This document shows, one piece after another, positions 2,532-45,711 of a stretch of DNA of 46,594 bases. The DNA comes from Minisyncoccota bacterium (GTDB taxonomy: Bacteria; Patescibacteriota; Minisyncoccia; Phycocordibacterales; JACOZG01). The stretch is from contig JAGVGK010000045.1 of assembly GCA_020057185.1 (NCBI GenBank), positions 1 through 46,594 of the forward strand, written 5' to 3'. Positions within the stretch are counted from its first letter, which is position 1; every line of letters starts with the position of its first letter. The notes beneath the pieces are model-generated. The model was not told where the DNA came from and searched no databases. It saw only the letters and a list, made by a program, of their open reading frames with translations. The translations under genes and the position numbers were made by a program.

Positions 2532-3524
2532 TTAGCAAATAGCATTCAAAATCTGGATTTTTAATTTGTAAGTATTTCCGTGATTAATTAACCCTAAATA
2601 AGACGCAATAGTTTCTCTTCTTTTTTCTTGTCGTTCGATATTTTTAAACATCCTTCGTCTTGTCGCCCGTCTCAACACTCGATGATCAGGAAAATGCACC
2701 CAGCCAAGGAAATCAATTCCCGAAGCGAGGGTTTTGATTGAAATTTTGTCTGGGTGTAAAACGAGTTTAAGATTCTGTAACAAAAAATAATTTAGTTCGG
2801 ATAAAATAATTAGGAGCCAGTTTTTATCTTGGCTCATCACCACAAAATCATCGGCGTAGCGCAAATAATATCTGGCCTTGATTTTATTTTTTACAAACTG
2901 ATCTAGTTGATTAAGATAAACATTGGCAAAGAGTTGAGAAGTTAAATTACCCAGAGGCAGTCCAACCCCATTTTGAGTAGAATGAAAACTTCGAATAATT
3001 TTAGATAAAAGAAATAGGGTATCGGCATCAAAAACATAATCTTTAATGATTTCAACCAAGGTGTCGTGATCAATCGAAGCAAAAAATTTCCGGACATCAC
3101 ATTTAAGCACCCAAACAGTTTTGGTGTGATTCTTTGAAACTTGGTGCGCCAAAGATCGAAAGCGGTCGAGCGCTTTATGCGTCCCCTTACCAAACCGACA
3201 AGAATACGAATCATAAATGAAAGTTCGATCAAAGAATGGATAAAGAATTCGATAGAGGGCGCGGTGAAGAAGTCTATCTCTGACACTAGCTTTGTGGATA
3301 CTCCTCGGTTTCGGATCCGAAACACGGAAAGCTTCATAATTGGCGTGCTGATAGGTTTTTGATTTGAGATCATTGTGAAGAGACAACAAATTATCCATTA
3401 GATTTAGCTCAAACATTTGAACATCATGACGAGACCGCTTCCCGCTCGCAAATTCTCGCCACGCTTCGAGAAGATTTTCGAGCGATATGATACGATCATA
3501 GCCATGACTAAAAATTATTCTCAT
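2532..3524 (-). CDS. DGR reverse transcriptase (~330 aa; ATG at 3524 preferred over the ORF-track start at 3572)
   Basis: KPRSIH, RDRLLHRAL, LKCDVRKFFASIDH, GLPLGNLTSQ (DGR-type SQ), RYADDFV, GIDFLGW; no maturase or endonuclease extension. Confidence 0.95.
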   Translation of the reverse strand: MRIIFSHGYDRIISLENLLEAWREFASGKRSRHDVQMFELNLMDNLLSLHNDLKSKTYQHANYEAFRVSDPKPRSIHKASVRDRLLHRALYRILYPFFDRTFIYDSYSCRFGKGTHKALDRFRSLAHQVSKNHTKTVWVLKCDVRKFFASIDHDTLVEIIKDYVFDADTLFLLSKIIRSFHSTQNGVGLPLGNLTSQLFANVYLNQLDQFVKNKIKARYYLRYADDFVVMSQDKNWLLIILSELNYFLLQNLKLVLHPDKISIKTLASGIDFLGWVHFPDHRVLRRATRRRMFKNIERQEKRRETIASYLGLINHGNTYKLKIQILNAIC

Positions 3525-3918
3525 GATGGTAATGTTACCCCCCCCGACGCTTTTGCCACTGCTCCAACACACAAAAGGTGCTTACCTAATATGGTATGGC
3601 TACTACCAGACATTACCGAAAACTCATCGACACTCTCTGGGCCAAAGAATTGACACATTGTTTGTAGAAATTATGGAAGCCATCGCCGCGGCTGGATTTT
3701 TATCACGGGAAGAGAAACCCCCTTATGTCCGACTGGCTATTCGCAAAACGGACACGCTAAAAGTATTACTGATGGTGTTGTGGGAAACTAAATCTCTTGA
3801 TAGCAAAAAATATATCGCTATTTCTCTGAAAATAAACGGGGTCGGAAAAATGCTCGGTGGTTGGAACGGACAACTCTTAAAACAAAACTCCCTCGGCAAT
3901 AAACCGAAGGAGAAATGA
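3523..3918 (+). CDS. avd: Avd-like four-helix-bundle accessory variability determinant (start could be 3523, 3526 or 3532)
   Basis: ~130 aa basic helical protein with LPKTHRHSLGQRID and GKMLGGW motifs; lies between TR and RT. Confidence 0.88.
   Translation: MMVMLPPPTLLPLLQHTKGAYLIWYGYYQTLPKTHRHSLGQRIDTLFVEIMEAIAAAGFLSREEKPPYVRLAIRKTDTLKVLLMVLWETKSLDSKKYIAISLKINGVGKMLGGWNGQLLKQNSLGNKPKEK
3879..3912 (-). terminator. putative intrinsic terminator of the TR RNA, embedded antisense in the 3' end of avd
   Basis: Minus strand ctccttcgg-tttattg-ccgagggag followed by ttttgtttt. Confidence 0.6.
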
Positions 3919-3926
3919 AGCGAGTA

Positions 3927-4049
3927 GCGAGCACAGCCGCGGGGTTGTTGACGTTCCAGTCGTTGTCGAGCCAGTTGTAGCTCCAGTTCCACCTGTCGCC
4001 GTTCCAGCAGAGGTAACGGACGTAGAGGTCGTCATCCGAGTTGCGGTTG
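3927..4049 (-). repeat. DGR template repeat (TR)
   Basis: 123-bp ungapped match to 4417-4539 (offset 490); 17 mismatches, all A in TR on the minus strand; 9 AAC codons in the VR reading frame. Confidence 0.97.
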
Positions 4050-4299
4050 CGTACAAGGTATCATCTATGCCACTGCCCCCAGTTTACTAAAATAGCAAAC
4101 CAAAAGCTGTATCGTATTCGTGATCGATAATCACTTAATACCCTGCACCAAGTAGCTTCATTTTTTGAAGTGTCTGCATACACCACTCTACCCAAAACCA
4201 TAGTCGTGAGTATTCTCGATGTATGGATACTGGGTTCGGTAGCGAGCAACCTTGATCGCCCGCATATTCACCTACTACCGCAACTATATTATCACAAAC

Positions 4300-4348
4300 A
4301 AAAAGAACCCCGCATCTTATCTGTGGTTAAACAGAAAAAATGCGGGGT
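4300..4348 (-). terminator. intrinsic terminator of the DGR target gene
   Basis: 18-bp inverted repeat 4307-4324 / 4331-4348 (2 mismatches) followed by a T-rich run on the minus strand. Confidence 0.75.
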
Positions 4349-4376
4349 CCGAGGACTAAGATCAAAGTGTCCAAGT

Positions 4377-4982
4377 TCAGTTTAGGACACAGTGACCGAG
4401 TCCACAGTGCGAACTTGCGAGCACAGCCGCGGGGTAGCTGACGCCCCAGTCGACGCCGAGCCAGTCGTAGCGCCAGAACCACCCGTCGCCGTACCAGCAG
4501 AGGAAACGGACGTAGAGGTCGCCATCCGAGTCGCGGTAGATAGTCCCCCAGAAGTAAACACGCTGGGTTTTCCATTCTTCGGGGATAAGCTCGGGATGCT
4601 TGAGTAGGAAGTCCAGCACATTGGCGTTCAGAACCCTCTGGCTCTTGAGTACCTCGCGTAGAACATCCCCCTTCATCCATTTGCCATCCTTCTGGTCGTC
4701 AGCGATATAAAGGGTGACGAGCGACTCTGTCCATTTGATAGGAACACCCTTCTGGTGTTCCTCCACCTTCCAACCCTCGGGCAGGAAGGGATCGGCGCAG
4801 CAGTCAATCACATGGTTGGCTTCCTTCGCCTCCCATATTCCCTTGAGGACATTGCGAACCCAAGCGAGATTGTCTCCCGTCGAGAGTTGCTTGACCAGCG
4901 CGGCATCCCATTTGCCCACTCGATTCATCGCCATTTCAAGCTCGTGCGCTTGACCGACACCCATTGTGAAGTCGTTAGACAT
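4377..4982 (-). CDS. DGR target protein (201 aa) with C-terminal variable region, probable C-type-lectin-like fold
   Basis: AGAAAGGAG Shine-Dalgarno before ATG at 4982; C-terminal YRDSDGDLYVRFLCWYGDGWFWRYDWLGVDWGVSYPAAVLA is encoded by the VR; fold is inferred from DGR precedent. Confidence 0.92.
   Translation of the reverse strand: MSNDFTMGVGQAHELEMAMNRVGKWDAALVKQLSTGDNLAWVRNVLKGIWEAKEANHVIDCCADPFLPEGWKVEEHQKGVPIKWTESLVTLYIADDQKDGKWMKGDVLREVLKSQRVLNANVLDFLLKHPELIPEEWKTQRVYFWGTIYRDSDGDLYVRFLCWYGDGWFWRYDWLGVDWGVSYPAAVLASSHCGLGHCVLN
4417..4539 (-). repeat. DGR variable repeat (VR)
   Basis: Copy of TR with 9 A>G, 7 A>T and 1 A>C changes; GC-rich invariant 3' end, then divergent IMH-like tail. 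Confidence 0.97.
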
Positions 4983-5152
4983 AGCTAACTTCTCCTTTCT
5001 GTCGTGAGACTTGTTCACTCGAACTCGTCTCGTCCCTTGTTTACGGCTTAGCACAATGCTTCGCCACAGCAGAGAAAGGCCTATAATCTAAGCCGTTTTC
5101 TGCTATGGCGAAACGCAAGTTGGGTATCAAAGAACTTCTCTATTCTTTCCCT

Positions 5153-5251: not shown

Positions 5252-5488
5252 ATGGAAATCATTAAAACGATTTTGCCGTGGGTGCAGATTATTGTCGCCA
5301 TTGCCGTGGTCGTCGCCATTCTGCTTCAACGCAATGACGCCGCTTTGGGCGGGGTCTTCGGTGGTAGTGGTAGTGTCGCTCATACGAAACGAGGTTTGGA
5401 GCGCGGTCTCTTCGTCACCACGGTGGTTTTGGCGATCCTTTTTGTGATCACCGCGATTCTCTCTTTTCTCCTTCAAGCCACCGTTTAG
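5252..5488 (+). CDS. secG: preprotein translocase subunit SecG
   Basis: Two TM segments flanking ILLQ...LGGVFGG...TKRGLE; ATG at 5252 preferred. Confidence 0.93.
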   Translation: MEIIKTILPWVQIIVAIAVVVAILLQRNDAALGGVFGGSGSVAHTKRGLERGLFVTTVVLAILFVITAILSFLLQATV

Positions 5489-5500
5489 TTAGATGGTCTT

Positions 5501-7204
5501 ATGCCTTTAAAAGATAAAATTGCCCGCACGGTGAGCATGATGCCACCGCCACGGAAAAAGCTTTTTGTTATTTGTCTCGCCGTTTTTCTTGTCGGGATTT
5601 TGACTCTCTTGTGGCTCACGAATCAAGCTTGGCTCGTGTCGGTGCCGGTTAGTGGTAGTCAATATATTGAAGGCCTCGTGTCTACGCCCCGTTTCATCAA
5701 TCCTCTGCTCGCGAGTACCGCCGTGGAACGAGACCTCACGACTTTGGTTTATTCCGGTCTTCTCCGTAGTAGTGGCACCGGCGAATTTATTCCAGATTTA
5801 GCCGAATCGTATACCGTTTCGCCCGATGGTTTAACTTACAACTTCACTCTGCGACCCAACTTAGTCTGGCACGATGGCGAACCAGTCACGGCCGACGATA
5901 TAATCTTTACCATCACCAAAGCTAAGGATCCGGCAATTAGAAGTCCTCGGCGCGCCAGTTGGGAAGGCGTAGAAGTGGAAAAAATTGACGCTCAACATTT
6001 CGTTTTCAAATTGAAACAACCCTACGCTCTTTTTTTGGAAAATCTAACGCTCGGCATCCTCCCCGCACACCGGTGGCAGAAAATCACCACCGCCGGTTTC
6101 TCCTCCACCAATCTTAATCTCGAACCCGTCGGCACTGGCCCCTACCAAATTTCAAACATCAAACGCGACAGCGATAATTTGCCGTTAACTTATACACTTA
6201 CGCCCTTCTCTCATTTCGCCCTTGGTGAACCAAAAATTGCAAAAGTTATTATTCATTTCTATCTGAATGAAGAGGCACTCTTGGGGGCTTATAATCGGGG
6301 CGAGATTGACGCGATCAACGCGATTGATTCTCTCACCGTTCGCGCCCTCGAAAAAAATGGTGCCCGCGTTTTGACCACTACTCTCCCGCGCGTCTTCGGC
6401 ATCTTTTTCAACCAGAATCAGCAAAAACTTTTTACGCGACCGGAAGTTCGCGCCGCACTCGACGCGGCGGTTGATCGTCAAGCTCTGGTCGCGGAAGTTT
6501 TTAGTAATTATGCCAAGCCCCTCACTGGACCATTGCCACTCACTTTATTCCCGGAGGCAACTTCTAATCAAGCCACGACCAGTCCGGATGAAATTCTGAA
6601 GCGCGCCGGTTGGCAAAAAAATGTTACCAGTGGTAAATGGGAACTGCCGACCAAAAAGAAAGGCGAAGTTCCCCTCGCTTTGCGCTTCACCTTAACAACT
6701 TCCGACACACCAGAGCTCAAGGGGGTCGCCGAGTTGGTGAAGCAGAATTGGGAAGCGTTCGGTGCCACCGTTGATCTAAAAATCTTCGAATTGGGGGCGC
6801 TCAACGAGGTCATTATCCGACCGCGCGATTATGAGGCCCTCCTCTTCGGCGAAATTGTCGGCCGGAATCCTGATCTCTACTCCTTCTGGCACTCTGCTCA
6901 ACGACTTGATCCGGGTCTCAATATTGCCCTCTACACCAACATCACAGTTGACAAAATTCTAGATGAGATTAAAGTGGCTAGTACAACTGACCGCCGGGCT
7001 TCGGCTTATCAAGCTTTCGACACCGAAATTCGGAAGGATAAGCCAGCGGTTTTCCTCTACGCCCCTGATTTCTTGTATCTCGTTCCCCGATCAGTGGAGG
7101 GTATTAATTTAGGAATTATTAACACACCAGCCGAACGTTTCTTAGGTATTTATAAATGGTATATTAAGACCGATAAAGTTTGGCCAATTTTCGTAAATGA
7201 TTAA
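5501..7204 (+). CDS. peptide/nickel ABC transporter substrate-binding protein (SBP family 5)
   Basis: N-terminal TM, PDLAESY, WHDGEPVTADD, PVGTGPY motifs. Confidence 0.9.
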   Translation: MPLKDKIARTVSMMPPPRKKLFVICLAVFLVGILTLLWLTNQAWLVSVPVSGSQYIEGLVSTPRFINPLLASTAVERDLTTLVYSGLLRSSGTGEFIPDLAESYTVSPDGLTYNFTLRPNLVWHDGEPVTADDIIFTITKAKDPAIRSPRRASWEGVEVEKIDAQHFVFKLKQPYALFLENLTLGILPAHRWQKITTAGFSSTNLNLEPVGTGPYQISNIKRDSDNLPLTYTLTPFSHFALGEPKIAKVIIHFYLNEEALLGAYNRGEIDAINAIDSLTVRALEKNGARVLTTTLPRVFGIFFNQNQQKLFTRPEVRAALDAAVDRQALVAEVFSNYAKPLTGPLPLTLFPEATSNQATTSPDEILKRAGWQKNVTSGKWELPTKKKGEVPLALRFTLTTSDTPELKGVAELVKQNWEAFGATVDLKIFELGALNEVIIRPRDYEALLFGEIVGRNPDLYSFWHSAQRLDPGLNIALYTNITVDKILDEIKVASTTDRRASAYQAFDTEIRKDKPAVFLYAPDFLYLVPRSVEGINLGIINTPAERFLGIYKWYIKTDKVWPIFVND

Positions 7205-27711: not shown

Positions 27712-28554
27712 CTAAGTTTTGGCTTTGAGTCGTTTTCGACTTTCCGATGTTTGCAGATAATTTTTTGGGGAAACCACACTTCGGCCAATTTCTTTTTCGG
27801 TTTGTTTTCGGGCATTGCCCGCCACCCTTCCCCCTCTCTCGGCCACTTGTTTATTTTTTACAAAAGTATCTGGCTTTTCTTGTTGCGAAATTTCAGTGGT
27901 CACCCGCTCGCCTAGCATATTGAAAATCAATTCCAAGTCATCCATATGGTCACGCAAATTTTGCCGTTTCAGTCCTTTCAGCTTTTTATATTCACTCGGA
28001 GTGACACCGAAGGTAGCTTTGGAAATTTCGGCGGTCAAAATTTCATATTCTTTTTGTTCTTTGACACCCCGTTTTTGCCATTCATCCGTTAATTCTTCAC
28101 GAATCACAATCCCGCGCATTCTTTTTTCTATCCAGCTTTCAGAATAACCCTTAAGTTTATAGAGCAGTTTGGTTCTTTTAGCAGCCAACTCTGGGTCTTC
28201 AATTTCTTGCACTCGTTCATAGCCGACCTTAGCCAACCAAAGTTTGAACGGTTCAGCTTTAGGGGATGGGATGGATTGGATAATGCGGAAAATACCTTCG
28301 GTGTTGGCGCAATCGGTTTCATAATTTTTGCCGTCAGAGGCCGGTAATTTCAGTTGGTGACAAAATGTCACCAACTCACTTCCCTCTTCTCTTAACCTTT
28401 GAACGAGCTTATTCCAATATTTTCTAGCCGTATAATCATTTTCTTGATCAGTTAATGCTTGGACCACATCCACCACCGAAAACCACCATTGGTTTTTATA
28501 AATAGTTTTTCTAATTTCCCTTCCCTTAAACAAAGTAATCTTTGTCGTTTCCAT
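27712..28554 (-). CDS. Bro-N domain (phage antirepressor-like) DNA-binding protein
   Basis: WWFSVVDVVQAL, RIIQSIPSPKAEPFKLWLA, NLRDHM motifs. Confidence 0.85.
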   Translation of the reverse strand: METTKITLFKGREIRKTIYKNQWWFSVVDVVQALTDQENDYTARKYWNKLVQRLREEGSELVTFCHQLKLPASDGKNYETDCANTEGIFRIIQSIPSPKAEPFKLWLAKVGYERVQEIEDPELAAKRTKLLYKLKGYSESWIEKRMRGIVIREELTDEWQKRGVKEQKEYEILTAEISKATFGVTPSEYKKLKGLKRQNLRDHMDDLELIFNMLGERVTTEISQQEKPDTFVKNKQVAERGGRVAGNARKQTEKEIGRSVVSPKNYLQTSESRKRLKAKT

Positions 28555-30375: not shown

Positions 30376-30942
30376 TTAACTAACCTGCCACGCCTTCAGC
30401 CAATCGAGGGGGTAGAGAAGCATCACGATATTGATCAGGAGATTATCACGAATAAAATACGCCAGCATTATTTCGAAAGTGATGATGAGTGCGATGGAGA
30501 GTGACACACGAATTCGCGACGCGAGGAAAAAACCAATCATCATCGCCAGAATATCGGAAACTGAATTGATGACACTATCGCCGAAATAATCGAGTGAGAT
30601 TGTCACTTCCCGATAACGGTTAATGATGAAATCAGAATTTTCAAGAATTTCCCAAGCCCCCTCAAGCGTGATCGCCATCAAGAGACGGAGTGGGACCGGC
30701 AAACGCGGAAACAGTAACTTGAATAGAAGATAGAAGGCAAAACCATGAACAATGTGAGTGAACGAATACCAATCCGAGAGGTGTTGAGAATTCTCGGAAC
30801 TAAAAACGACACCATGCCAAAGTCGGACAAATCCGCACTTACACCACGGCACTTGTCCCATCAAGTAGAGAATAAGAGCCGTTAGTGAAACTAGTCCAAT
30901 GCTGATCAATACATAGTATCGAGGTGAAATTCTTCGATCCAT
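30376..30942 (-). CDS. DUF2585 (UPF0314) membrane protein
   Basis: C.CG.V.LWHG...SSENSQHLSDWYSFTHIVHG, WEILENS, GDSVINS. Confidence 0.88.
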   Translation of the reverse strand: MDRRISPRYYVLISIGLVSLTALILYLMGQVPWCKCGFVRLWHGVVFSSENSQHLSDWYSFTHIVHGFAFYLLFKLLFPRLPVPLRLLMAITLEGAWEILENSDFIINRYREVTISLDYFGDSVINSVSDILAMMIGFFLASRIRVSLSIALIITFEIMLAYFIRDNLLINIVMLLYPLDWLKAWQVS

Positions 30943-33130: not shown

Positions 33131-33202
33131 TTAGCGAATCCCAGTATCACAAGTGATGTCGGCTGTGACGTAGCCACTCTGACCGACGACGACCTCTACC
33201 GG
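33131..33202 (-). pseudogene. out-of-frame C-terminal remnant (PVEVVVGQSGYVTADITCDTGIR*) of the upstream gene
   Basis: 24 open codons in a different frame, overlapping the stop of 33196-33660. Confidence 0.55.
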
Positions 33203-33660
33203 CGAATGCCGGAACTGATTGGCGGCGCAGTAACTCCGGCAAACATAATAGGAATCTCTAGCGCATCATCGTGTTCTGGCAAACCCGAGGGGTTGTCTTT
33301 TTTCAAAATCAGAAAACCGCGATTGCTATAGGTATTTTTATCTACCGTGAATGTAAGGGTCGCCTCAAACGGGACGAAGCCTGTCGTCATCCAGTCACCC
33401 TTGGCCTGCGCGATACCTTGGGCAATAATCAATCCATCCCAATTGGTAAGGACGACTGGAAAGCTCGCTTCAAAATACCAATTGCCCCGCGCTTCTCCCG
33501 TAATGGTAAGCGGACTCGAGATGGTCTGATTGAGGCGCGGAGAATCAACTCGGATAATCTTCGCTTGACCAGGTTGGTCGCTCGGTCTCGTTAGCTTCCA
33601 GGACACACCCAAAACCGCGATGACCAAAATGATAATAATTATCGGTAATGTTTTTTTCAT
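33196..33660 (-). CDS. exported Gmad2-like immunoglobulin-domain protein, probably truncated by an internal deletion
   Basis: Signal/TM; GEARGNWYFEASFPV, WMTTGFVPF, LKKDNPSGLP. Confidence 0.8.
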   Translation of the reverse strand: MKKTLPIIIIILVIAVLGVSWKLTRPSDQPGQAKIIRVDSPRLNQTISSPLTITGEARGNWYFEASFPVVLTNWDGLIIAQGIAQAKGDWMTTGFVPFEATLTFTVDKNTYSNRGFLILKKDNPSGLPEHDDALEIPIMFAGVTAPPISSGIRR

Positions 33661-34595: not shown

Positions 34596-35571
34596 TTAGC
34601 TAATATATTTTCGACTAAGCGAGATGGAGAAATAGCCTAAACCAATAAAAATGAAGCCAAGAATCACCAGTAAAATCGGCCAACTAATCGAATCGGCAAA
34701 ATGTTCATTCGTGATATAGATAAAGTGAGCAACCAAAAACAGCACGCTAATCAATAACACCAAACGACTCCGAATGACAAAAATCGCCAGCGCCATTCCG
34801 CCAATCGTTAGCCCGAAGAAGAGTAATTTCCAAAGATCAAACTCGAAAACACGAGTAAAAGCGGCAACAAAAAAACCAACGCTGCCCAGGAAATTAAGAA
34901 CGGAGACTAAATACCGATTCCATCCTGAACGCCAAGAGTAGGCGAGCAAAAGATAACTTAAACCCACGATCATTGTCAGATAAGCGTACAAATCCTGAAA
35001 CTGATAGAAAGCGCCACCAACCATGGACTCAACCAAGAGATAGATCAGAGCAGTGCCGTTGGCGAGGGCGAAAAAAGTGAGCACCACATTCCGGTGATAA
35101 AAATTAAGCAAAAGATAAAAAAGAAAAATGAAACCGAAAACAATCGTCACTGGCCAAAGCGAAATAAAATTGTAGTCGAATTCATAGAGGGTCACCAACG
35201 CGCCACCGGGAATGAGGAAGCCGGCCAGCCCATGCCAGACTTCCCCGAGATGGCTGGCCGACTTGGTGCGTAAAAAGAAAGAGCCAATTCCTGCTAAAAT
35301 TAAACCGAGAATCAAGGTGACGAAAATCCGCCCGCTGGCGCCGAGATCCTCCCAGATTTGCGCGATGAAAAAGATGAGCCCAAGCAAAGCGACCGCGCCA
35401 CCGAGGATATAAAATAATTTCGTGAGCGAAAAGCGGGATTCATTAAAGGTTCGACCTTTCCCCCCCCAAGGTCGAACCTTGACTAGGGAGCCGATTCACA
35501 ATCTCCTCCCGACTAATCTCACCGGTCAACACTTTAGCTGATAATTCTTGCAATAATTCTTGATTAGTCAT
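34596..35571 (-). pseudogene. DUF2157-like multi-TM membrane protein, frameshifted by one base at a G8 tract
   Basis: ATG 35571 gives 42 aa ending at TAA 35445-35443; removing one G from G8 (35460-35467) joins it in frame to ORF 34596-35387. Confidence 0.75.
35446..35480. repeat. perfect 13-bp inverted repeat (REP-like doublet) with a homopolymer loop
   Basis: aaggttcgacctt-tcccccccc-aaggtcgaacctt. Confidence 0.9.
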
Positions 35572-45102: not shown

Positions 45103-45711
45103 TCATTTTATAAACCTGAAGGTGGAAAGGATCTCGGGGAACGGGGAAGAATTCACATCCTTAATTACCAGCATTGACGACCCATTCAATCGGACAGCAA
45201 TCACATGACCGGGTCCGTTGTAACCACTGTATTGACTATCTACCTCGATAGCCGGTTTCCCTGCAAAAGTAATGTCTTTTACAATAATTTGACCCGACTG
45301 CCATTCGGGAATGTTTATATATTTTTCAATCCATTCACGAGATGCCGTAGTCGTAGCATTTACAGAAAAAGACAACAGGATGGGTTCACAACACAGAGCA
45401 AGATCTTCGTTTTTGGCGTCTAGGGCAATATGAACTTCGTCAGAATCAGAGGGGGCTGGTATTAATTTATTTCTGTTCACATTAGAGATTTTGTTGTCCT
45501 TGTCAAAAGTAAAAGCGATGCGTTCCGCCGGATACTTAAACTCAAACCCATATTTATCATTTCGATAAGTTTTCCAGTTTTCTATTCCCTCTCCTTCGGG
45601 GAGGGCGGAGGGTGGGGTGTTTTTGTTTTTCCACACCGCATACCCGCCACCAACTAAAACCGCGAGGATGATAATGAGAGCGATGGGCGAGAAACCTTTA
45701 TTTTTTAACAT
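45103..45711 (-). CDS. membrane-anchored exported protein with WKTYRNDKYGFEFKYP and ILSTFRF terminal motifs (PsbP-like fold suspected)
   Basis: KGFSPI pilin-like N-terminus plus TM; paralog at 45958-46494. Confidence 0.8.
   Translation of the reverse strand: MLKNKGFSPIALIIILAVLVGGGYAVWKNKNTPPSALPEGEGIENWKTYRNDKYGFEFKYPAERIAFTFDKDNKISNVNRNKLIPAPSDSDEVHIALDAKNEDLALCCEPILLSFSVNATTTASREWIEKYINIPEWQSGQIIVKDITFAGKPAIEVDSQYSGYNGPGHVIAVRLNGSSMLVIKDVNSSPFPEILSTFRFIK

Follow-up and report, generated by a model that had tools for sequence, protein, structure and literature searches.

A probable free-standing template RNA with an upstream clamp strand in a B3-type DGR of a Minisyncoccota bacterium

The element described here lies in a 46,594-nucleotide stretch of DNA from a Minisyncoccota bacterium (contig JAGVGK010000045.1; the window) and is an ordinary CPR-type DGR of the catalogued architecture B3, in which a target gene with its VR is followed by TR, a reversed avd and the reverse transcriptase (RT) gene. 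This gene layout is already in print; what is new relative to it is a probable priming domain which, judged from conservation and covariation, stands in front of the template and not behind it. The element is probably organised in four transcription units, including a free-standing RNA of ~400 nt with a clamp strand upstream of TR. A more far-reaching form of this model is put forward tentatively and, taken in its entirety, is rather doubtful: the RNA of B3 DGRs would be circularly permuted, self-contained within ~400 nt and cis-primed 5′ of the template (at ~G4149), and a G/C run would reset RT promoter spacing and Avd reading frame together, thereby making hypermutation phase-variable.

The target gene, VR, TR and RT are on the minus strand, and avd, placed between TR and RT, is on the plus strand, an arrangement that the original prediction had read correctly from the window. 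The longest ORF of the target gene spans 4377..5054 (first ATG at 4982), and its product has no Pfam match and no PDB sequence match. VR (4417..4537, read from 4537 to 4417) lies in the 3′ end of this ORF, which ends at 4377, and was delimited by self-BLAST against TR (121 nt, 86.8% identity; alignment A1); the two repeats differ at 16 positions, 16/16 of them at TR adenines. By homology TR occupies 3927..4049 (from 4049 or 4047 to 3927), and the clamp helices described below, which bracket it, end at 4051 and 3927. The RT gene (2532..3524, stop included; ORF list and homology) runs from an ATG at 3524-3522 to a stop at 2534-2532. The avd ORF spans 3523..3918 on the plus strand when counted from its first in-frame ATG, with further in-frame ATGs at 3526 and 3532 and an Avd domain from about residue 11. 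Its stop (3916-3918) is 8 nt from the last TR/VR-homologous base (3927), and at its other end the avd ATG (3523) and the RT ATG overlap in a CATG at 3522-3525, so that they have 2 nt in common; both distances agree with the original prediction.

The RT belongs to the DGR clade. It matches RVT_1 (E 8e-24) and aligns over 321 aa with BPP-1 bRT at 34% identity (E 2e-54), the two having an LG.LTSQLFANVY block in common; the LG.LTSQ block is a hallmark of DGRs. Among solved structures it is closest to 8ub7_A (E 7e-46), which scores much higher than group II intron and retron RTs, and the score against retron models is far below their cutoff. A failure of the ORF at 3523-3918 to match any Avd profile had been named in advance as grounds for abandoning the inverted architecture, and two matches were found, both below cutoff: NCBIfam NF033474 DivGenRetAVD (E 7.6e-16, profile positions 1-102 of 104; 58.3 bits against a curated 80) and Pfam PF22296 bAvd (E 1.5e-9; 38.7 bits, with the cutoff at 40). 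Precomputed PF22296 annotation is carried by 120/120 avd homologues among the matches listed. Similarity to BPP-1 Avd itself is weak by hhalign (probability 20.8%, 18 columns aligned), and no PDB sequence was matched by the avd product, whether searched by itself or as a profile of 35 sequences.

In 73 of 80 related loci avd stands immediately upstream of RT and on the other strand, the remaining seven having at most 163 nt upstream of the RT match, so that avd is reversed in all 73 relatives with enough flank; this is the survey of avd orientation beside homologous RTs that had been suggested. In 53 loci and the window, TR has the same orientation as RT and ends beside the avd stop, most commonly at a distance of 6 nt. 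The available text of Wu et al. 2018 (Nucleic Acids Res 46:11, PMC5758913) defines architecture B3 as TR-(avd)-RT, the avd being reversed, which is the core order of the window, and reports it for 90% of CPR DGRs. The layout is not unusual; it is, as described there, the norm in CPR. Overlap of the two starts in a CATG is not a conserved feature: an in-frame ATG upstream of the C run is present in only 26/72 sequences and at variable positions. The conserved, promoter-proximal avd ATG is the one at 3504, from which avd overlaps RT by 21 nt, and the CATG common to both genes is probably a matter of chance.

All promoters, transcription starts and terminators given below are consensus-based assignments. 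Downstream of the target-gene stop lies a terminator-like hairpin on the minus strand (4296..4348; arms 4348-4340 and 4315-4307, T-tract 4306-4296) which was read from the sequence and does not appear in the terminator scan list because its loop exceeds 8 nt; a hairpin and T-run likewise precede the DGR-RNA promoter in the 48-row alignment. This promoter is a conserved TGnTAnnnT block, in the window the extended −10 element TGTGATAAT (4288..4296, minus strand), from which a start near 4281-4279 is inferred. In 38/48 loci, against 10.7 expected from shuffles, the block immediately precedes the conserved 5′ end of the RNA. Together with a hairpin and U-tract behind TR, it points to a separate template RNA of ~400 nt, running from ~4280 to 3878.

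The 5′ domain of the proposed RNA (4051..4280, minus strand) is predicted by RNAalifold on alignment A5 to form helices at ~4262-4255/4250-4242, at 4225-4221/4181-4177 (with inner pairs 4212-4203/4198-4189), at 4134-4130/4124-4120, at 4109-4100/4082-4071 and at 4148-4137/4062-4051. Across 48 sequences and 68 pairs, 91.9% of cells are paired, compared with 73.9% in shuffles (0/500 of which reach the observed share) and 40-54% with slid partners, and cells changed on both sides number 624 against 172 in shuffles; these counts refer to a structure predicted from the same alignment, whose 48 sequences all come from a single RT clade (58-66% identity). The window sequence forms almost all of the predicted 5′-domain pairs, and folded alone its RNA gives z = −3.94. 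A search of 3300-4700 against Rfam, with E up to 1, returned no family, only two sub-threshold chance matches.

At the centre of the proposed structure is the clamp strand (4137..4162, minus strand). Its 5′ half (4162-4149) pairs with 3927-3914, the linker, which starts from the final base of TR/VR homology, and its 3′ half (4148-4137) pairs with 4062-4051, a segment ending 1 nt before TR. The first of these helices (helix 7) has 12 pairs, 8 of them changed on both sides, is paired in 88.9% of cells and forms 11/12 pairs with one mismatch in the window; the second (helix 8) also has 12 pairs, 11 changed on both sides, with 96.8% paired and 12/12 formed in the window. The two helices are contiguous at 4149/4148, and their ends coincide with the limits of TR/VR homology, bracketing TR exactly. 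With clamp helices on both of its flanks, TR would be held out as a loop, and because the clamp strand is upstream of TR the RNA looks like a circular permutation of the BPP-1 DGR RNA. By analogy with BPP-1, we propose that the clamp strand is the equivalent of the primer strand and stop strand combined. Other pairings compete with helix 7: its UGAAG can also form a local hairpin (CUUCA-A5-UGAAG), and in the minimum-energy fold of the window the linker is paired with the 5′ end of the RNA and not with the clamp strand.

Behind TR, the 3′ module (3878..3926, minus strand) consists of the linker (3926-3913), a 10-bp stem-loop (3912-3888) and a U-tract (3887-3878), and overlaps, on the other strand, the avd stop and the last ~12 avd codons. 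It is called terminator-like by the scan tool. A hairpin followed by a T-tract is present after TR in 50/69 sequences, against 656/11,516 background windows, and a covariance model of the module (R1) gave 68 matches in 618 kb, of which 61 were on-site. The stem is 7-10 bp long and starts 14 nt after TR, and 7/7 of its alifold pairs covary. A stem-loop directly 3′ of TR is the Avd-binding element in BPP-1, and the sequence of the window contains a putative counterpart; Handa et al. (bioRxiv 10.1101/2023.10.23.563531) report, in the part of the preprint available, that an Avd-binding stem-loop is predicted in 207/278 DGRs. The U-tract may not end transcription, in which case the stem-loop is perhaps only an Avd-binding element. 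Two other pairings were discarded. One, between the linker and the 3′ arm of the stem-loop, was judged by eye on alignments A3 and A5, where L023, L037 and L060 differ in the arms and have the same linker. The other, between a TR segment GGAACG...CAAC and antisense avd, was dropped; the TR adenines of this segment are copied into VR, and it is therefore not 3′ of the initiation site.

The original prediction had held that any priming spacer 3′ of TR must be antisense avd. The strand that pairs with the TR flanks was found upstream of TR, and constraint at the RNA level extends over only ~50 nt 3′ of it, so this claim is not borne out; beyond the stem-loop, a BPP-1-type 3′ spacer (primer strand, stop strand and RT-binding elements) was not recognised. 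Hairpin-plus-U terminators can leak, and if this one does, the TR transcript could read through it in the manner of BPP-1, the ~400 nt of antisense avd serving both as priming spacer and as 5′ leader of the RT mRNA. TR and RT are indeed co-oriented with only avd between them, and the BPP-1 spacer lies 3′ of TR. Such a transcript is nevertheless improbable. Synonymous entropy along avd is near expectation except at codons 120-123, RNAalifold found no conserved structure past the hairpin (231 nt, 61 sequences; hairpin only), and complementarity of antisense avd to the region upstream of TR or to the TR 3′ end was no better within a locus than between loci (p = 0.30 and 0.73), a weak test in that the duplex energies are large. 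Seven loci carry inserts of 20-45 nt, variable in length, between the U-tract and the avd core. Moreover, the conserved hairpin and U-tract come straight after TR, RT has a −10 box of its own at leaderless spacing, and the covarying upstream strand already pairs both TR flanks. A second possibility accepts the 5′ helices as real and denies them a role as primer: they would serve only to fold the TR RNA, to stabilise or regulate it, or to bring in RT-Avd, and priming would take another route, for instance the 3′ end of the RNA itself, a nick or target DNA. The structure does rest on covariation, the linker has the competing pairings described above, and hairpins H1-H6 are without BPP-1 counterparts. 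We consider this unlikely, given that the two helices adjoin on a single strand, enclose TR with nucleotide precision and preserve the 5′-to-3′ order of primer and stop in BPP-1, and that the template-side order of TR, paired linker and stem-loop is also that of BPP-1.

The claim that the promoter of each gene must lie inside the other gene agrees with the candidate promoters that were found. On the RT strand, a −10 box TAACAT (3532..3537, read 3537 to 3532, minus strand) is followed after 7 nt by the RT ATG. A TANNNT box lies 5-9 nt before the RT start in 28/68 loci, against 5.4 in shuffles, and exactly 7 nt before it in 23 of those 28; a canonical −10 box at the RT start is thus confined to only 28/68 loci. 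The predicted leaderless RT mRNA is plausible, since 13/37 long ORFs of the window have the same −10-then-ATG geometry; an SD-like motif was found at only 5/37. The spacing between the −35-like and −10 elements of the RT promoter is 15-16 nt in the window, and its mode is 18 nt in relatives.

On the avd strand, a leaderless-type promoter and start (3488..3506, plus strand) are embedded in RT codons 7-12: TG at 3488-3489, TACGAT at 3491-3496, 7 nt and ATG at 3504-3506. Geometry of the type TANNNT-N7-ATG is found there in 52/72 sequences, 49 with 7 nt and 42 with the TG, and the avd leader ATG stands at +20 of the RT start in 48 sequences. RT His7 is CAT in 52/55, and RT His7, Asp11 and Ile12 are constrained at synonymous sites, in agreement with an embedded avd promoter. 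Within avd, for which a test of excess synonymous conservation at both ends had been suggested, the constrained codons are 120-123 near the 3′ end, with synonymous entropy ratios of 0.17, 0.51, 0.0 and 0.45. Part of the conservation of the avd promoter is protein-driven, because its elements also encode conserved RT residues. In the window, ATG 3504 and the avd body are in different frames (+1); in the relative P0135 the same leader is in frame. A TTG at Leu10/11 was rejected as a universal avd start, many loci having TTA or CTA, and 10/72 having no start-like codon.

A run of C8 on the plus strand and G8 on the RT strand (3538..3545) separates the leader ATG of avd from the Avd core and adjoins the RT −10 box on its upstream side; it thus falls within the spacer of the RT promoter and within avd codons 12-14. 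A G run of 7-14 nt, its length differing between species, is present in 72/74 sequences, and 68 of the 70 G/C runs of at least 8 nt in 571,591 nt of loci are at the avd/RT junction. The conserved leaderless-type avd ATG is open up to the run in 51/52 sequences and in frame with the core in only 12, the reading frame of avd being random across the run. For this reason the run is a candidate slippage switch; the frames would fit switching, and on the sequence comparison the run probably acts as a slippage-prone switch. G-run length is not significantly compensated by the rest of the promoter spacer (Spearman rho −0.26, p = 0.07). A literature search found no paper tying DGRs to homopolymer tracts or phase variation, and nothing relevant on slipped-strand, leaderless or permuted forms of DGRs.

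The chief competitor of a switch, with a chance somewhat short of even, is that the run is a fixed spacer or structural element of the RT promoter, that Avd starts downstream of it (at TTG, GTG or another codon) and that it does not matter in which frame the upstream ATG lies. L006 has G10 runs immediately before −10 boxes with no avd opposite, a start-like codon follows within 15 codons of the run in 29/72 sequences, the Avd HMM match begins after the run, and homopolymer lengths in metagenome-assembled genomes may be wrong. Set against this, 10/72 sequences have no in-frame ATG, GTG or TTG near the N-terminus, a start just after a C run cannot have an SD-like sequence before it, and the conserved ATG is open to the run in 51/52 sequences but in frame in so few of them; the run itself varies from 7 to 14 nt, and a dinucleotide repeat takes its place at the same spot in L045 and in proteins P0212/P0213. 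It could also be supposed that the copy in the window is decaying and the element inactive, with avd out of frame with its conserved start: ATG 3504 is in the +1 frame relative to the avd body, and the −35-like to −10 spacing is 15-16 nt where relatives mostly have 18. This is very improbable, as RT, avd and the target have intact ORFs, in-frame avd ATGs are available at 3523, 3526 and 3532, all RNA helices are intact, 40/52 relatives are in the same out-of-frame state, and the 16 adenine-specific TR/VR differences show past activity.

In the organisation that we favour, the target gene would form the first unit and be ended by its own hairpin terminator. The DGR RNA, the second unit, would start from the extended −10 promoter at ~4280 and end at 3878 with the stem-loop and U-tract, over the avd 3′ end. 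Strand 4162-4137 would make the two adjacent helices with the linker and with the segment before TR, and cDNA synthesis, by analogy with BPP-1, would be cis-primed near G4149, start at ~3928/3927 and stop near 4050. RT and avd would be expressed as the third and fourth units, each from a leaderless mRNA; their promoters would overlap and the mRNAs diverge, the starts at 3524 and 3504 each lying 21 nt inside the transcript of the other. The G/C run would act on both as a slippage-prone switch.

Most CPR DGRs are built on the B3 layout, and a large part of the known DGRs is found in CPR genomes, whereas the mechanistic work has all been done on BPP-1, with its spacer behind TR. Should the strand for priming and stop lie upstream of TR in B3 elements, the start and stop of cDNA become directly testable in them. 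The minimal RNA for reconstitution or engineering would then be defined to the nucleotide, at ~400 nt and with natural ends, and the DGR RNP would tolerate circular permutation of its RNA. A homopolymer common to RT and Avd would give a small genome a simple on/off control of a mutator.

Among known systems the closest are the CPR B3 DGRs of Wu et al. 2018 (PMC5758913), which, in the text available, have the same order of TR, reversed avd and RT, a single adjacent upstream target and a CPR/Patescibacteria host. Set beside them as they are described there, the window shows no difference in gene order and is one more member. The same available text describes no 5′ structured RNA, no terminator-like 3′ module, no overlapping leaderless promoters and no G run, and the word "spacer" occurs in it 0 times.

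The G/C run resembles phase-variable tracts in that it is 7-14 nt long, lies between a −35-like and a −10 element and inside a reading frame, and differs in length between relatives. Poly-G/C tracts of this kind make promoters and genes phase-variable in Neisseria, Haemophilus, Bordetella (fim) and Campylobacter. In contrast to these, one run would here act on two divergent genes, and its variation is known between species only.

In retron msr-msd RNA the priming nucleotide precedes the template on its 5′ side and is carried to the template 3′ end by a long-range helix that joins the two flanks. The DGR RNA would be alike in both respects, in the position of its proposed priming nucleotide and in the long-range helix that moves it there. 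The RT of the window is of the DGR type and not of the retron type, and it has an Avd partner and a VR target. In the part of their preprint available, Handa et al. (bioRxiv 10.1101/2023.10.23.563531) themselves liken 2′-OH priming to retrons.

The BPP-1 DGR is described in the same source with the order mtd-VR, avd, TR, spacer and brt, and the spacer in its RNP forms a primer duplex beside a stop duplex, followed by the template-side Avd-binding stem-loop. The window differs from it in that avd is reversed and takes the place of the BPP-1 spacer, the two-duplex strand lies ~90 nt upstream of TR and not downstream, the RNA apparently has its own promoter and terminator where BPP-1 has an avd-TR-brt operon, extra hairpins are present at the 5′ end, and its Avd is only weakly similar to bAvd. 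Common to both are an Avd-family partner and adenine-specific TR/VR differences and, as far as the BPP-1 structure is set out in that source, a single strand that would form two adjacent duplexes with TR looped out between them, and a stem-loop straight after the template-side strand.

The RT gene occupies the minus strand from an ATG at 3524–3522 to a stop codon at 2534–2532, as read directly from the sequence, and avd, an ORF of 131 codons, occupies 3523–3918 of the plus strand. As originally described, the two start codons overlap in a common CATG (3522–3525), a TAACAT (3537→3532) sits 7 nt upstream of the RT ATG, and a gap of 8 nt separates the last homologous base of the template repeat (TR) from the avd stop codon (3916–3918). 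The identity of avd is supported by matches to the Avd models NF033474 (E 7.6e-16, whole profile length) and PF22296 (E 1.5e-9), both with scores under the curated cutoffs. The RT is 34% identical to bRT of the Bordetella phage BPP-1 (E 2e-54), and its closest solved structure is 8ub7_A (E 7e-46). TR (4049→3927) and the variable repeat (VR, 4537→4417) differ at 16 positions, all 16 at TR adenines. Directly downstream of the RT gene (208–2493), two minus-strand ORFs, 1135–2493 (452 aa) and 208–1107 (299 aa), look like SecD and SecF when their translations are inspected by eye, which would place the DGR amid housekeeping genes, without adjoining phage genes on that side.

An alignment of 32 RT homologues was used to retrieve CPR/Patescibacteria loci, and 584 of 599 candidates are relatives, the best 80 of which were analysed. 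The inverted orientation described for the window recurs among them: by tblastn, 73 of the 80 best-ranked loci have avd immediately upstream of RT and on the other strand, and the remaining seven have flanks of at most 163 nt. Self-BLAST yields TR/VR pairs with adenine-specific mismatches in 53 loci and the window, and in all of these TR is co-oriented with RT and its end adjoins the avd stop codon, most commonly at a distance of 6 nt. This layout matches architecture B3, TR-(avd)-RT, as defined by Wu et al. 2018 (PMC5758913), and is therefore already catalogued: the layout is not special, and the locus is a further member of a known architecture. Six loci labelled uncultured Gammaproteobacteria or Azotimanducaceae (L029, L037, L040, L042, L067 and L076) carry the same Patescibacteria-type cassette, with RT identities of 60–63%; faulty binning, wrong labels or transfer may account for this.

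The proposal that each gene's promoter lies inside the other is supported by the geometry of −10 boxes and start codons on both strands. On the RT strand, 28 of 68 loci have a TANNNT ending 5–9 nt ahead of the start codon, compared with 5.4 after shuffling, and the spacing is exactly 7 nt in 23 of those 28. On the avd strand, 52 of 72 sequences contain TANNNT-N7-ATG; the spacing is 7 nt in 49, an extended TG is present in 42, and the ATG occupies position +20 relative to the RT start in 48. In the window these plus-strand elements are TG 3488–3489, TACGAT 3491–3496 and ATG 3504. Opposite this ATG, in antisense, lies the codon of RT His7, a CAT in 52 of 55 sequences (ratio 0.31), and Asp11 and Ile12, overlying the avd −10 box, are likewise constrained; RT synonymous ratios fall below 0.65 in 6 of 233 informative columns, three of them within the first 12 codons. 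It is ATG 3504, however, that is the conserved avd start, giving an overlap of 21 nt, and the CATG at 3522–3525 is not conserved. Of the 37 window ORFs that are 150 aa or longer, 13 show the same −10-to-start geometry, frequently in the form TGCTATAAT-N7-ATG, and only five have a Shine–Dalgarno-like motif; on these patterns, leaderless starts appear common in this organism. TGnTAnAAT is seen about 7 nt before the ATG of many genes that lack a Shine–Dalgarno-like motif, for example ORFs 27712–28554, 30376–30942, 45103–45711 and 33196–33660.

A C8 run (3538–3545) separates ATG 3504 from the Avd core; read on the RT strand it is a G8, immediately ahead of the RT −10 box. At this junction, 72 of 74 sequences carry a G run of 7–14 nt, with 10 the commonest length, and of the 70 G/C runs that reach 8 nt or more in the 571,591 nt of loci, 68 are at the avd/RT junction. 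The other two are in the related locus L006, directly upstream of −10-like boxes by a second, avd-less DGR. This second DGR, downstream of the first, consists of VR2, TR2 and an RT 35% identical to that of the window (L006 features at 3404–3413, 5009–5151, 5253–5262, 5791–5933 and 5988–7028), and one of the G10 runs of L006 stands in the series TTGCCA, 18 nt including the G10, TATAAT, 6 nt, ATG. Locus L045 has a (GT)n/(CA)n dinucleotide repeat (about 155–190) in place of the run, and the homologous Avd proteins P0212 and P0213 have HTHTHT at this position.

The leaderless-type avd ATG is open as far as the run in 51 of 52 sequences and is in the Avd-core frame in only 12 of the 52; each of the remaining two frames is about as frequent or more so (21 and 19 sequences). 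Within the Avd-core frame, an ATG lies upstream of the run in 26 of 72 sequences, only GTG/TTG in seven, a start-like codon solely downstream of the run in 29, and no start-like codon at all in ten. The window's avd leader, MTKNYSHDGNVTPP (ORF 3417..3653), is out of frame; the homologue P0135 has this same leader in frame. A tentative reading, to which we give somewhat less than an even chance, takes the run for a switch prone to slippage, whether of DNA, RNA polymerase or ribosome; such a switch would act on RT promoter spacing and Avd frame at once. Its main rival holds that the run is a fixed promoter element and that Avd starts downstream of it. From a −35-like xTGGCA to the last base of the run, the distance is 15–22 nt (mode 18), and it shows no significant compensation with run length. 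The window has one other G/C run of at least 7 nt, at 35460–35467 (C8 as read on the plus strand, G8 on that of the gene). This run forms part of the loop of a perfect 13-bp hairpin and splits a membrane-protein gene (35443–35571, 34596–35474) into a 42-codon N-terminal ORF and a body of at least 263 codons that remains open across the run in a different frame. It could be a second frameshift-prone site of this genome.

On the 3′ side of TR, a priming spacer made of antisense avd had been proposed, and tests of synonymous constraint, structure and complementarity do not bear this out. The mean ratio of avd synonymous-codon entropy is 0.88 (64 sequences), and the constraint looked for at the avd ends is present at codons 120–123 only (0.17, 0.51, 0.0 and 0.45), with values near expectation elsewhere. 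Opposite these codons, the TR strand carries a stem-loop (3912–3888) followed by UUUUGUUUU (3887–3878), together scored as terminator-like by a terminator scan. By our own criteria the same hairpin and T-tract occur in 50 of 69 sequences versus 656 of 11,516 background windows, and a covariance model of the stem-loop matches on-site in 61 sources and seven times elsewhere in 618 kb. Its pairs covary, with a count over 48 sequences that is biased because these were chosen for having a hairpin. RNAalifold finds no further structure beyond the hairpin (231 nt, 61 sequences), and complementarity of antisense avd to the TR flanks is no better within loci than between them. In L030, L034, L012, L015, L051, L031 and L060, an extra 20–45 nt separates the post-TR U-tract from the avd core, suggesting that the hairpin/U-tract module travels with TR and not with avd; the Avd C-terminal tail is lengthened in these loci (alignment A4 of related loci, columns 127–160). 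Weak matches to the covariance model (E 0.07–0.14) in L007 (3183–3230), L062 (3183–3229) and L002 (3207–3247) sit about 50 nt downstream of VR, so that the hairpin after the target gene resembles the post-TR hairpin.

Upstream of TR, the VR–TR gap is strongly conserved and spans 257–431 nt, typically about 350 nt, in 48 sequences (369 nt in the window). RNAalifold predicts 12 helices from these sequences (alignment A5). With both the structure and the pair counts taken from this one alignment, 91.9% of cells are paired, compared with 73.9% after shuffling (0 of 500 reach the observed value) and 40–54% after sliding; 624 cells are changed on both sides (shuffled 172, slid 97–188), and the covariation score is 0.555 (shuffled 0.228, slid 0.11–0.19). 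Helix 8 pairs 4148–4137 with 4062–4051 (12 pairs, 11 covarying), its 3′ strand stopping 1 nt short of TR/VR homology, and helix 7 pairs 4162–4149 with 3927–3914 (12 pairs, 8 covarying), its 3′ strand starting on the last homologous TR base. The window forms 12/12 and 11/12 of these pairs respectively, one position being a compensatory C–G. Since the 5′ strands of the two helices are contiguous, a single strand would clamp both TR flanks, with TR extruded as a loop. Immediately past the hairpin and T-run of the target gene is a conserved extended −10 box (TGTGATAAT, 4296→4288, in the window), found in 38 of 48 loci versus 10.7 expected and located 7–8 nt upstream of a conserved 5′ block, GGUAGUAGG. 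Taken with the hairpin and U-tract on the 3′ side, this box predicts that the RNA is a free-standing species of about 400 nt, which matches no Rfam family.

The layout (Wu et al. 2018) and the post-TR stem-loop (Handa et al., bioRxiv 10.1101/2023.10.23.563531) are already published. A full-text literature search, covering the main text of Handa et al., returned nothing relevant on DGR RNAs that are permuted or primed from a 5′ domain, on leaderless starts of DGR genes, or on control of DGRs by homopolymers; the Handa supplements or Paul et al. 2017 may bear on the matter. The main text of Handa et al. does not contain 'permut', 'antisense' or 'opposite', and describes an analysis limited, around TR, to 40 nt on the upstream and 100 nt on the downstream side.

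According to that main text, BPP-1 has an Avd-binding stem-loop immediately 3′ of TR, and such a stem-loop is predicted in 207 of 278 Avd-containing DGRs, including CPR members; the post-TR stem-loop of the window fits this predicted element and differs from that of BPP-1 in its added U-tract. The BPP-1 spacer is described there as forming two adjacent duplexes, a primer duplex with the TR 3′ end, priming at Sp A56, and a stop duplex with a segment upstream of TR. These share their 5′-to-3′ order with helices 7 and 8, and the Avd stem-loop follows the template-side strand, as the post-TR stem-loop does here. With this arrangement, the CPR RNA resembles a BPP-1 RNA that has been circularly permuted, the opening falling between the Avd stem-loop and the primer strand. 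If the analogy holds, cDNA would be primed near G4149, copying would begin at 3928/3927 and synthesis would end near 4050. Against this reading, the minimum-energy fold of the window (z = −3.94) forms competing pairings, in which the linker pairs with the RNA 5′ end and a local CUUCA/UGAAG hairpin replaces helix 7, and the pair-counted structure derives from its own test alignment. The comparative evidence suggests that the known DGR mechanism exists here in a new variant, with much weaker, inferential support for its functional part and good support for its RNA structure.
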